Both the position numbers and the translations under genes were made by a program. From assembly GCA_051047955.1 (NCBI GenBank), contig JBPGPT010000002.1:620001-684000 (forward strand): a stretch of 64,000 nucleotides of DNA, written 5' to 3'. Shown here piece after piece: positions 8,665-57,007 of this stretch (its first letter is position 1; every line of letters begins with the position of its first letter). The notes beneath the pieces were generated by a model that had not been told where the DNA came from, made no database searches, and saw only the letters and a list, made by a program, of their open reading frames with translations. The DNA is from Cystobasidiomycetes sp. EMM_F5. Its lineage: Eukaryota.

Positions 8665-9808
8665 TCTTGCGGATATCGTTGCGTTGACAGTTTGTTGTTC
8701 GTTGTTAGAGATCCGTTATTGACGGCTACAGGAGGTAAGGTCGTAGCCGGGAAACAGGTATGAGAGTCTGAATTGAGTTTTTGGGCCTCTGAGTACGTGT
8801 CAGGCTGCGGTTGCCTTTGTGCGATATCGTCCGCCTCTTGGGTTCCCAAATCACTTCGGCTTGCACCCGGTTGACCCAAGCAGCCCGGACGAGGCTGGCA
8901 GGGAGAATTCGCAAGCTGATAGCCTTTGTCCAGTGTACGAGATGTTGCGTACTCTTCGAAATATCCAATTGTGACCTTGTGCCGAGTGCCGTGACGATCC
9001 GGAGCTTTAAGGGGCTGCGATACTTCAGAGCTCCAGAGATAGATACGACAAGTCGCGCTCTGCACAAAGTTGATGGAGCGTAAGAGAAGAATCAAGTCCA
9101 AATCGTCCTCCTCCGTTTACGTGTTTCGTCTTCAGCCTGGCAATCCAGTTACATAATTACGTGCCCCTGCAGATCACTTGCGCGCCGGCATGCTTGGGTG
9201 TGGGCGACCGCAATTTCAAAGAGTGTGGTCTTGCTTTCAGCCTATTGAGCAGCCGCAAGTGTAAATGCGAATACCCAGCCAGAGGTATGTCCCAGATGCC
9301 GTCCAGAATGGTCGAGGCCCAAAAGTTTTGGTGACGTTGGACGGCTCCGCTTTTCGCGTCGCAATGCAAGACGAGCTCCGTCGTAGCAGTAAAGGCAAGC
9401 ACCGGCTGCCGCCAGTGTCCAGGATATCGGCATTATCTGGCGCGTCTCCTGATGGTCCTAGACCCATTGTCGCATTAGTACCTTACGCGCTCTAGGCCTT
9501 TAGCGTCCCGTCGCGTCGTCGGAGAGGGCCGGGGGCTGGGCCCCTTTGCTGCTGGCGCTCTAGCAACATCAGCGAAAATGCAGCAAGACAATGCTGCCGT
9601 CGTATGAGACGCGCAAGACGTGCAAAAGGTCATTCTATGGCCACGCCGCGGCGCTCTCAGTGCTACTCGTCCTCGTACATTCAAGCTTCATCTTCCCCGC
9701 TTTCATAGTGCAAAAGACGAAATGACACAGAAAGCCTTCAGCTTTACTCTCTGCATACACACACTCACTCGATATTACATAGAGCCTGTCTGCGTACATA
9801 CACCAATC

Positions 9809-11230
9809 TCACAAGATGACGCAACGCCGACGAGATCCTGGCTTTTTGCGCTTTCCCTCGCGTTGCTGGTTTGGAACATCGTTCCGATGACGAATGACCT
9901 GTCTCAGCAAGTCTTCAAACACGTTGTGAACGTTGATGTCGCGCCGTGCACTCGTCTCGTAGTATGGCACTCCGCCCCAGGTTTGGGTAGTGAGGGCTAC
10001 AGGTATCTGCCGCGGCACTTGGCGTTCGTTGACGAGATCCACTGCGTACAAAGCTATCGTCAGTACCTTGCACACGCTTGTAATACGCACTCACCTTTGT
10101 TGCCAACCAAGACTATCGGTATATTACTCTGAGCAAGTGATAGCCATATGTTAGTATACGCGGGACAAGCAGCGTCAACACACTACAGCCCACCGCAGTG
10201 TATCCATCCACTTCTTTCAGTCGTAATATCTGATCCCGCAGATTGGATAGCTCGTTGAGAGTCTCCATGCTTGTCAGAGAAAAGACGAGAACAAAAGCGT
10301 CCCCGCTCTTCATGTATATCGAGTGCAAGGCCATACTGTTCTACGTTAGTGTATATTCCTGAAATTCAGGCCAAAAACCCTGTGCATACACTGAACGGGA
10401 AGCATTAGCGCTTGTAGTATCGTATCCGGGCGATATGTGCTTACACTGATGAGTCGTCCCCGTTGCCGAGTCGAAGAGCACGCAGCCATGACTTTAGCAT
10501 CTGATCTTTGACATGACTCTGCGCGCTGTCTACGCACTTGTTCTGTCCCGGCTGTGTCGAGCACCTCGACTTGGATCGTCACGCCATCGACTTGCACTAT
10601 CTTCTGGTACTGCGCAGGGGAGACTAATCAGCTTTAGCCGTATTGCATCTTGTATGTCAAGCTCACTTGATCTTCTATGGCTGTTTATCACGTACGGCGA
10701 CGTCGTTGACGCGTACCAGGGCAGAGATAAATATCGCGCACGTGAGCGTGTAAAGCTGCATGCAAGCGAGTTTGCACTGACTGGGATCATAACTCTCGAC
10801 GCTGTATAGCACAAAGGGGTTATATGTGGTTCAGCTCTTCCGTAATTGAGATTGCAGACATAGCCATGCTGTCGTAAATTTGTGCCTCTTGACGACCGAG
10901 ACTGCCATTGACTGCAGCTGTTCAGGATTGTCCAACTCACAAGACGCTGTAGACGTATTGACACGTTAAGGCAGACTTGCCTACACCACCGCCTGCAGTA
11001 GGTTCCTAAGCCATCAGACTGTGATATCCCGATGCCGGACCCGAACTGCGCAACGGCCGCGAAATGGATTCAGGCATGACTTTTGGCCAACTCACTGCCC
11101 AGTATCACGACCTTTGTGCGGTGGAATGGAGCATCATTCGATCCTGTTCCCATGGCCAGTTCATGCCCGCTTCGCTCGTCGGTGTGCGCGAAAACAAAAT
11201 GATGGACACTTTCATTTCATCGGGTCTCAT
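9809..11230 (-). CDS. RSR1: Rap/Rsr1(Bud1)-like Ras GTPase, ~11 exons including micro-exons
   Basis: Spliced product reads MRPDEMK|VVILGS|GGVGKSALTCQYVYSVF|VESYDPT|IEDQ|YQK..DTAGTEQ|F|MALHSIYMKSG..|NIPIVLVGNK|VDL..ETSAR..RRRCVIL (CAAX). Thr at the Ras Q61 position is Rap-type. The first exon is less certain. Confidence 0.88.
10390..10390 (-). other. Putative second 1-nt coding exon (T) of the Rap/Rsr1 gene
   Basis: Minus strand reads CTAAT..gttCAG|T|GTATGC, flanked by two 54-nt introns. Confidence 0.78.
10445..10445 (-). other. Putative 1-nt coding exon (T) of the Rap/Rsr1 gene
   Basis: Minus strand reads catCAG|T|GTAAGC. Needed for frame and for the Phe of DTAGTEQF. Confidence 0.75.
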
Positions 11231-11709
11231 GGCCTTCTCACGCATTGACCTGCCTCTTTTTTTGCGAAATGCAATGAAAGACTCACAGACCTTCCGGATG
11301 ACATACGCTTACCCAACGAGTTAAGCTTCCTAGCCTCCGAGTCGCATCGCGACCCGTACTCTGCGACAATTCCATTTGTCGTCCGGGTCGGAATGTGGAG
11401 CATCGCGGGTGCGCTCACTCATGGGCAGCAGGACAGTCACAATGGGCAACAAACTCTCACGCCTCGTGATGTTTATGTCCACCGGGTTGCCAACGGACAA
11501 GCTCGAAGCAATACAGTAATGGCAAGTCACTTCACTTGTCGACATTCCACGAAATTGCTGTCCCGCTCTTCATCTGGAGATCGTGATGCATACGCTACAT
11601 GACGTCGGGAAATCGAAGTGATCCGATTCCATAGTCCATTCTTTTCTTTGGCTCTTCTGTCTCTATCTGCGCCATATCTCCATTCTTCTTGTTCATGTGA
11701 TCGCCTACG

Positions 11710-54831: not shown

Positions 54832-57007
54832 GGCCCTGCTCGCCGTTTGCCACTCTGTCGGGTGTCGTCAAAAGGTCGCGAAATTTGGCGAAGTCGAGGT
54901 TGGCTCTGCTTTGCATACTTTGGCAAATTTCAAACAAGTCAATTACAAACCTGGTGAGTGGGTTTGATTATCAAACACCCCCAGCATCGCATTGCATTGC
55001 ACCGGCGGACTCGATGACAGCAACCAATTACTCTTTCCCCGTCGTATCCACACCTGCCGAGACGACAAAGAGGCGTACCCCGTCTGCCAGGTCTTCGATT
55101 TACCTCGAGCCTGGTGGCAGGTCGCATCATCGCGACTACGACATCTTCCGTAGCCGCAACGCTTGCCAGTGTTATCCTTTTGTCTGATCCGTCGTTGCAA
55201 TAGTGCAACTCGCAAAAACCCAGTTTCGATCATGCGAGAATTTCAACTGATTGATTCTTGTGAATAGGTATCTGTGACAGTATGATGTAGGCAGTGTGAG
55301 TACTATGGTCCTTTTCATGCTCCCTCCCTCCTTGTTATTTTGCCGACCGACGATGTAGACGGCTACCCGTGCCATAAATCCACTCGCAGTTTCCACAGAT
55401 TGGTCAATCCTACGCCTGGGATTTCTCACAGCTTCTGTTGACGCAGAACTTGAGGAGGCTTGATCTCTCGCTCGGGGTTCCGTTAAAACGAGCTCTGGGG
55501 CCGTGACAGCGAACCCTCCCTGGCTCACGCCTTGCGAGAGTCGCGGTAATGGGAGTAGAGCTTCGATTGACGATGGTTTGACGGGCGTCTGAGGTCTCTC
55601 TCTTACTCTCAGTTTGCACTCTGATGACTAGTCGCACAACTTGCTGACTTGCGTCTCTAGTTTGCAAAGTCTAAACAGGCGCGCTTTGGCCTTCTCCTTG
55701 CAGTCATGTACAATGCAATAGTGTGCGTGTCTTGTTGTATGCTTTGTGCAAGTACAAACATTCGTATGGCTTACTTGAGGGTCTGCTCTTGCCGTGTCAC
55801 ATACAGGAGTTGATGCATCTAAACATGTTGCGCTCAGACCCTCTCCGTACACACATGCATCCCGTACCCACTCCACACATTCAAACGATGAGACGATTAC
55901 CACTCAAATATTAATAGGAAGAGCCGTCTTACTCTGTTCCATGCTCCGTCTGATTTTCAATCAGCGAGAAGGTCTGACCGCCGTCCTTGCTCAAGGTCAG
56001 CAAGACGAGCGAACGTCGGGATTTGGATTCCGTATTCTGCATCCTTTAGCAGTAGCAAGTGATCTGAAGCTATGGCGGGTCCTACGGGAGGGTAGCCTGC
56101 GCTACATCGGGAAAACATACTGCTCGAGCGTTTGAGTCGTCGGCTCGTGCGATTACTATGCTTTTCGGTCTCATACTCCCTCATTCGCTATTCCAAACGT
56201 CACCGTCCATACGCATACGCTTTCGTCCATCCATCCCATCTTCTGCATGCTTGGATGCTGTGGCCAGCGTCGGCGCTTCGATTGATGGATTCGTCCGTCG
56301 TTTCGATGGAGGAAGGACGGCGAGGCTTGTTGGTGTCGAGTGGTAATGGTGTTAAGCTATATGCGCTCTGTCCCAGCAGGGCCTTCCCCTATCCTCTCGG
56401 AATTGGGCCCAGTGGGCTGGGTGTGTCGAATTGCGAGCGATCATGCGATGATTGACGGGCGAACGAGGTCGAGATATTGCAAGAGGGTGGAGGAAAGCCG
56501 AGCATGACCGAATCCGCCTGACGTTCGGTACTGGACTCGATGCGTGTGTCGGCTCATCTTCTCGGAGTTCTTGAAATAGAACAAGATTGCATGTATGCTG
56601 TTTGAAGATGGCAGGGGCAGAGTCTGCTCAGTCCTGTAGATGTACGCTTGCCTCGCTGGCTTTGCCGGCTCGGACGGACGGAAAGCCCTTTTCTGTGGGC
56701 ATGGAAACGGGAAGGACGATAAAACTGGTTTTCATTACGAAATTTATTAGCTGAACTCTGCACTCTCCGCTTCTTCAAAGCCGACGTCGCTCAGTATTGC
56801 CAAGGAGCCGCATGAAACTTTCACGGACGTAAGCTGATGTGGTTTCTGTTTCGATTGGACAGGATGCATTATATTCAGGTCATGCATGCAATTCGCTAGA
56901 GAGATCCTTGTAGCATAGTTCAAGATGTGATTTGAAAACAATAGAACAACGACATTACTGATTACTGAGTTTTCACATTGCTGTACACTGCTTGAGATGC
57001 CGATGCT

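Follow-up and report, generated by a model that had tools for sequence, protein, structure and literature searches.

The minus strand of the window, by which we mean the whole 64-kb stretch of DNA analysed, carries the coding sequence of a Rap/Rsr1-like small GTPase between positions 9809 and 11153. The gene model, joined from window coordinates and translated, consists of 10 exons and 9 introns and contains no in-frame stop codon; its 627 nt of coding sequence specify a protein of 208 aa that begins MGTGSNDAPFHRTKVVILGSGGVGKS... and ends ...RRRCVIL, with the final CVIL followed by a TGA stop codon at 9811-9809. Every one of the 9 introns starts with GT and ends with AG. From the first to the ninth they measure 103, 139, 101, 57, 92, 54, 54, 65 and 53 nt, an intron density of 9 introns per 627 nt of coding sequence. 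What sets this gene apart is the junction between its fifth and eighth exons, where a single phenylalanine codon (Phe73) appears to be divided by short introns into three one-base parts. The features of the locus are as follows, with slashes marking exon-intron borders and "the contig" denoting a spliced transcript contig described below.

11153-11096, minus strand: exon 1, window-based model; start codon proposed at 11153-11151
10992-10941, minus strand: exon 2, window-based model
10782..10801, minus strand: exon 3, a micro-exon of 20 nt; found by eye in the contig, with 1 synonymous difference
10667..10680, minus strand: exon 4, a micro-exon of 14 nt; found by eye in the contig
10538..10609, minus strand: exon 5, 72 nt, translated as YQKIVQVDGVTIQVEVLDTAGTEQ, ending in phase 0 after CAA; both ends coincide with contig piece boundaries
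10446..10537, minus strand: intron 5, 92 nt, GTGCGT...CATCAG, phase 0 between Gln and Phe; the position is also found in relatives L001 and L002
10445, minus strand: exon 6 of the model, a lone T that opens the Phe73 codon, in the context CAG/T/GTAAGC; the contig has TT between exons 5 and 8
10391..10444, minus strand: intron 6, 54 nt, GTAAGC...CTAAT...GTTCAG; fits a strict intron-like pattern
10390, minus strand: exon 7 of the model, a lone T that supplies the middle base of the Phe73 codon, in the context CAG/T/GTATGC; the contig has TT between exons 5 and 8
10336..10389, minus strand: intron 7, 54 nt, GTATGC...CTAAC...AACAG; fits the same strict pattern
10194..10335, minus strand: exon 8, 142 nt, a T (third base of the Phe codon) and then, in translation, MALHSIYMKSGDAFVLVFSLTSMETLNELSNLRDQILRLKEVDGYTA; matches the Pfam Ras profile, and a contig piece ends at 10335
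10128-10095, minus strand: exon 9, window-based model
10041-9809, minus strand: exon 10, window-based model
10341..10343, minus strand: competing in-frame TAG acceptor, which would open an exon from 10340 and give TEQ-NS-MALHS; unused in the contig

A Rap/Rsr1-like GTPase gene rich in short introns and exons

As judged from its protein sequence, the label "Rap/Rsr1-like" for the window gene is justified. The predicted protein contains a Ras-family domain with the motifs GSGGVGKS, YDPTIED, DTAGTEQ, NKVD and ETSAR, which we take to be the G1-G5 motifs of GTPases, and the Thr that stands in place of Gln in DTAGT is a hallmark of Rap proteins. At the C-terminus, a basic stretch precedes a CAAX motif ending in Leu (...KRKKPGSRRRCVIL), and a terminal Leu in such a motif directs geranylgeranylation. 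Residues 2-41 of exon 8 correspond to positions 63-102 of the Pfam Ras profile, and both exon 8 and its orthologue P0006 match PF00071. The latter protein, annotated as "ras related protein 1b" of Cystobasidium minutum (Basidiomycota, Pucciniomycotina, Cystobasidiomycetes), is the closest relative found, with 91% identity over exon 8. Aligned with the whole window model, it is identical at 145 of 194 residues (75%), and the alignment runs without a gap from residue 14 to residue 199, across the junction in question. When this orthologue, rather than the joined window model, was used as the query in a search of solved structures, the 15 best matches were Rap-1b or Rap-1A (E 1e-54 to 4e-51), ahead of Rap2A, Ral, R-Ras and KRas. 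The initial annotation had assigned the gene to Rap/Rsr1 and had aligned MALHSIY gaplessly after DTAGTEQF; both points are borne out by the ungapped pairing of P0006 (ldtagteqf-malhsiymk) with Rap-1b (ldtagteqf-tamrdlymk). A Cyphobasidiales protein from a metagenome-assembled genome that is named rsr1 is also among the matches to exon 8. The window gene may be an Rsr1 orthologue or a second Rap-like paralogue, of an FMALHS type as against the canonical FTAMRELY type of loci L003 and L011.

Several further details of the gene may be recorded. The two micro-exons of 20 nt and 14 nt, exons 3 and 4, are separated by an intron of 101 nt. Upstream of the proposed start codon, an ATG at 11164-11162 on the minus strand opens a short out-of-frame reading frame (window 11164-11105) that overlaps that start codon and, by reading, runs to a TGA within exon 1, a possible uORF. 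Introns 1 and 2 have nearly the same first 13 bases, GTGAGTTGG-CAA (11083-11095 and 10928-10940, minus strand; 12 of 13 identical), and are dissimilar over the rest of their length, while introns 6 and 7 have GTA-GCACA in common at their starts. An extended donor preference could account for these shared starts, as could a common origin of neighbouring introns.

A phenylalanine codon probably spread over a 202-nt junction

Read on the minus strand, the junction runs ...ACA GAA CAA/GTGCGT...CATCAG/T(10445)/GTAAGC...CTAAT...GTTCAG/T(10390)/GTATGC...CTAAC...AACAG/T(10335) ATG GCC TTG. Between the end of exon 5 at 10538 and T10335 there are thus three complete intron-like units of 92, 54 and 54 nt, an anatomy that had been described in the initial annotation and that we recovered unchanged, in coordinates, lengths and motifs, upon re-reading the strand. 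The single Ts at 10445 and 10390 each lie in CAG/T/GTANGC, with AG directly before the base and GT directly after it. The flanking introns appear viable: introns 6 and 7, at 54 nt, are of a size with the gene's other small introns (53, 57 and 65 nt) and possess their own CTAAT and CTAAC, respectively, and intron 5 has canonical ends. By reading, no clear CTRAY branch site stands at the usual distance from the acceptor of intron 5, where the candidates are CTAAA, GCAAC and CTCAT at 48, 17 and 4 nt. No Rfam family matched 9600-11400 at E up to 1, and the predicted fold of 10320-10555 is not unusual (z = -0.23).

The reading frame places a strict demand on this junction. For the exon that begins at T10335 to encode MALHSIYMKSGDAF..., it has to be entered in phase 2; its other frame specifies no GTPase. 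Since exon 5 ends in phase 0 and exon 8 is read in phase 2, two bases are missing between them. Within the 202 nt, the sole AG/T/G[TC] sites are those at 10445 and 10390, and AG/TT/G[TC] sites number 0; the two single Ts are therefore the only possible source of TT, given GT-AG or GC-AG introns. With both Ts kept, the model gives 627 nt and 208 aa without a stop, and when either or both are dropped its translation shifts frame, just as the initial annotation had predicted for skipping, and soon meets stop codons.

Transcript evidence was drawn from one public run (X1; a 0.06 share of words, and only guessed to be RNA), which was compared with positions 9700-11300. It yielded one contig of 243 nt, at a depth of 3.4 and 95-99% alike to the window, in three pieces that cover 10237-10335, 10538-10609 and 10941-10976. 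The joint between 10335 and 10538 skips 202 nt whose ends read CT..AC on the plus strand, that is, GT..AG on the strand of the gene, and the letters found between the joined ends are exactly AA on the plus strand, or TT on that of the gene. The contig thus reads GAACAA-TT-TATGGCC. Moreover, 0 letters at this joint fit either side, and the ends of the flanking exons consequently cannot be shifted. The 34 letters that lie in the contig between 10609 and 10941 correspond, by eye, to exon 4 (14 nt) followed by exon 3 (20 nt), with 1 difference (AGT to AGC, Ser to Ser). As the contig is without five introns, it derives from spliced RNA. It differs from the window at 3 of 207 aligned letters and at 1 of the 34 between the pieces, or about 4 of 241 exon letters, and its source may be another strain or a sister species rather than the strain of the window. 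Support from mature RNA therefore takes the form of this one contig, of depth 3.4 and 95-99% likeness, from a run guessed to be RNA; it contains the diagnostic word that the initial annotation had expected in RNA reads, with TT exactly between 10538 and 10335. Only the productive form was seen, and no T-skipped or partly spliced contig was present in this single low-depth run.

TTT itself is therefore observed, in a fragment from a near-identical organism, and that exactly T10445 and T10390 contribute its first two bases we infer from the sites available in the window. The earlier claim that both single Ts are exons, giving an mRNA of ACAGAACAATTTATGGCC, agrees with the TT of the contig and with the want of any other source of TT in the 202 nt. 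Two ways in which that claim might have failed, a different 2-nt exon and shifted splice sites, find nothing to sustain them, given 0 AG/TT/GY sites and 0 shiftable letters.

The arrangement is also more than chance would give. The string CAGTGTANGC occurs 2 times on the two strands of the 64-kb window, both times at this site, against 0.45 expected; a count of 2 anywhere was reached by 8 of 100 shuffles. A strict intron-like pattern (GTVNGY..CTRAY..YAG, about 45-80 nt) has 76 matches in the window; in 100 first-order Markov simulations the count averaged 33 and never exceeded 48. Units of this pattern exactly 1 base apart form 1 pair in the window, namely introns 6 and 7, and such pairs number 0 in the 100 simulations. 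A separate candidate on the plus strand, CAG/T/GTGAGT at 55295 with CTGAT upstream, is probably incidental, having stops in 3 of 3 forward frames and no evident coding exon.

Relatives, competing readings and the origin of the extra introns

Relatives of the gene that cover the site retain the phenylalanine, and those with a readable structure are free of the one-base exons. A protein search with exon 8 against longer proteins returned 8 proteins among 19 candidates. TEQFMALHS is contiguous in 5 of these (P0004, P0006, P0007, P0008 and P0011), which are all those contiguous across the site; in 2 (P0005 and P0009) the open reading frame takes in, without a shift of phase, an intron situated after Q and before an intact F, and 1 (P0010) starts downstream of the junction. 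When proteins of comparable length were searched instead, 6 of 6 candidates were obtained: P0012 reads ...VKQ-FMALHS, with an intact F right after an apparent intron end, 4 start at a Met after the junction, and 1 is the window's own reading frame. In a metagenome scan, 18 loci were read as DNA or in translation. Two of them (L001 and L002) have one intron between CAA or CAG and an intact TTT or TTC, and DTAGT[EDQ]QF is contiguous in 9 more Rap-like loci (L003-L009, L011 and L012); the remainder are 4 more distant Ras-like genes (L013-L016) and 3 loci (L010, L017 and L018) with no upstream DTAG. An intact Phe codon is accordingly found in 11 of 11 readable Rap-like loci as well as in the read-through frames of P0005, P0009 and P0012. 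Every relative that covers the site has Phe there, with at most one phase-0 intron ahead of an intact TTT or TTC wherever the structure is visible, and the two Ts of the window gene thus restore both the reading frame and a conserved residue. The initial annotation had suggested looking for CAG-T-GT sites in orthologues, and here the outcome went against conservation, as the 11 intact codons attest; such conservation is true of the plant and Fusarium one-base exons discussed below, and is not strictly defining. The intron position between Gln and Phe, by comparison, is common to the window gene and its nearer relatives.

Three observations on these relatives stand apart from the question of the codon. 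The Gln/Phe intron of L002 (2404-2498) is of the GC-AG type (GCAAGC...CAG). In the public model of P0008, a Cyphobasidiales protein of 330 aa from a metagenome-assembled genome, the N-terminus is extended by a long unrelated stretch, and an additional SQSQDLLRSV separates YDP from TIED, where the window gene has its micro-exons; this segment looks like a mis-modelled intron and micro-exon region. Lastly, in six more distant Rap-like loci (L004-L009) an intron occupies another site, immediately behind DTAGTEQFS and some 250-390 nt upstream of the matches.

Taken together, we hold it to be very probable that Phe73 (TTT), in switch II of this Rap/Rsr1-type GTPase of a basidiomycete yeast near Cystobasidium, is split T/T/T by two extra short introns placed after an older Gln/Phe intron, and that all three introns are removed with two 1-nt exons kept. 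Among the alternatives, the one that survives best accepts the one-base exons as real and supposes that they are alternatively skipped, with unproductive splicing and nonsense-mediated decay (NMD) regulating the gene. Omission of either or both Ts does lead to a frameshift and early stop codons, and very short exons are prone to skipping. In the same vein, exons of less than 51 nt may cause exon skipping according to the Arabidopsis study (PMC4674806). The 1-nt exon of Arabidopsis is, however, described as constitutive (PMC4674806), the only form seen in run X1 (one run, of low depth) is the productive one, and the region contains neither a conserved structure nor an RNA family. We therefore regard regulated skipping as unlikely.

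A further alternative would have the whole region removed as one intron through the TAG acceptor, with exon 8 beginning at 10340 and the protein reading TEQ-NS-MALHS, and would attribute the TTT of the contig to a relative in which the codon is intact. Such a transcript would be in frame and would encode a full-length protein; the contig, moreover, with its likeness of 95-99%, could stem from another strain, and the Phe codon is intact in all relatives with a readable structure. Against this, the product would lose a Phe that is present in every relative examined and would add one residue to switch II, and the paired intron-like units with their single Ts, of which the 100 simulations produced 0, would go unexplained. 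The TAG also lies just 5 nt after the branch A (CTAAC, 10346), compared with 10 nt for the CAG, which is weak evidence in the same direction; a distance of 5 nt from branch to acceptor is unusually short for yeast introns. Removal as a single intron is, in our estimation, very unlikely. Pseudogene decay or misassembly, with a merely incidental likeness to three introns, seems an extremely improbable explanation: a second intact copy could exist outside the 64-kb window, but the frame stays open across 10 of 10 exons, which all have canonical GT-AG borders, neither the GTPase motifs nor the CAAX is damaged, identity to the Cystobasidium protein is 75% (145/194), the one contig difference that could be placed is synonymous (by eye), and the pattern has a very low probability of arising by chance.

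Returning to the reading of two one-base exons within an interrupted codon, the intact Phe codon in relatives, together with the shared Gln/Phe intron, makes the two extra introns look lineage-specific. As they are seen only in the window, they would most parsimoniously represent a gain in this lineage. Their origin from a tandem duplication of a 54-nt intron finds no support: when introns 6 and 7 are compared, each with its preceding T, 9 of the first 10 columns are identical and only 20 of 55 overall, mostly splice signals. No copies of introns 5, 6 or 7 were found beyond chance words of 8-15 nt in the 64-kb window and the 18 fetched loci, which is a weak test, and an origin from introner-like repeats is likewise without support. 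In connection with the Fusarium one-base exon, it has been proposed that a lost base can be rescued by a cryptic AG/N/GT site within an intron (PMC12940212). The rescue of two bases at once would need two ready-made sites with branch points, and this route thus appears less likely than two successive intron insertions into T/T/T. A bolder proposal is that two separate introns gained in one codon beside an older intron mark an existing splice junction as a hot spot for new introns, which might arise there when excised introns reverse-splice next to it, and that an obligatory recursive order of removal, with failures passed to NMD, tunes the level of a polarity GTPase. We consider this unlikely; if true, the codon would be the first known to be assembled from three exons and would offer a natural test bed for the minimal exon.

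Splicing of the junction and its precedents

The splicing of such a junction may be envisaged as follows. The pre-mRNA would present three complete GT-AG introns, of 92, 54 and 54 nt, with two one-nucleotide exons between them. Short fungal introns are recognised by intron definition, and the two 54-nt introns, having their own ends and a CTAAY each, could each be recognised alone in this manner. Under intron definition, no exon sequence is needed between introns, as the published single 1-nt exons show. Because an acceptor and the next donor are one base apart, spliceosomes could hardly occupy neighbouring introns simultaneously, and the introns are therefore most likely removed sequentially. 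Removal would then resemble recursive splicing, in that the upstream exon together with its newly joined T would act as the 5' exon of the next reaction, and the final product would be ...GAA CAA TTT ATG GCC.... A recursive splicing site proper keeps no base. Splicing at this junction is probably sequential and constitutive, and it is reasonable to suppose, as did the initial annotation, that ordered splicing is needed.

One-base exons have precedents in plants and fungi. A constitutive 1-nt exon was reported in Arabidopsis APC11 (Guo and Liu, 2015; PMC4674806), and conserved 1-nt microexons are known from plant APC11 and VPS55, where mention of "two 1-nt" exons refers to two different genes (PMC8831610). 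As in the window gene, a single base lies between a canonical acceptor and donor, is essential to the frame and was missed by annotation (PMC4674806; PMC8831610). The plant genes, however, contain a single 1-nt exon apiece, which land plants have in common, whereas the window gene is fungal, has two in one codon, and has them to the exclusion of its readable relatives. The 1-nt exon of Fusarium CYP621A, presented by its authors as the second case of its kind and the first from a fungus (PMC12940212), comes closer, being a single base (AG/G/GT) in a fungal gene that falls in the codon of a conserved motif, restores the phase and is supported by SRA reads. It differs in that there is one G exon, in ascomycetes and conserved in 24 genes, as opposed to two Ts in a GTPase of a basidiomycete yeast (PMC12940212). 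Within the basidiomycetes, the tally for Coprinopsis cinerea stands at 13 exons of one nucleotide (13 genes), 57 of two (50 genes) and 27 of three (26 genes) (PMC12230235), which indicates that a basidiomycete spliceosome can handle exons of 1-3 nt. With 13 one-nt exons in 13 genes, none is reported there with two, and the part of that source consulted describes no consecutive pair (PMC12230235).

The junction also invites comparison with recursive sites and with stwintrons, in which one intron lies inside a splice signal (donor, branch or acceptor) of another (PMC12403724; PMC5639578). In all of these, successive reactions at an abutting acceptor and donor lead to one mature junction (PMC12403724; PMC5639578). 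The window gene differs in that its three introns each have complete signals of their own and that one base is kept at each step. Identification of the junction as a stwintron can be set aside, all three introns having uninterrupted GT...AG ends in the genomic sequence. Full-text searches of open-access papers brought to light neither a consecutive pair of 1-nt exons nor a codon divided among three exons. The window site takes a known rarity to a new extreme; it is no new kind of mechanism.

Exons of one base represent the lower limit of what the spliceosome can retain, and few have been described. Where two stand in succession, the spliceosome has to excise three introns from 202 nt to the exact base, and exon sequence offers no help in defining the sites. 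The gene is consequently a natural substrate for the study of the order of intron removal, of the simultaneous occupancy of abutting acceptors and donors, and of the establishment of new introns beside old ones. Gene-prediction programs will split this gene or model it wrongly, as will spliced aligners, and models of its relatives already go astray at the neighbouring micro-exons.
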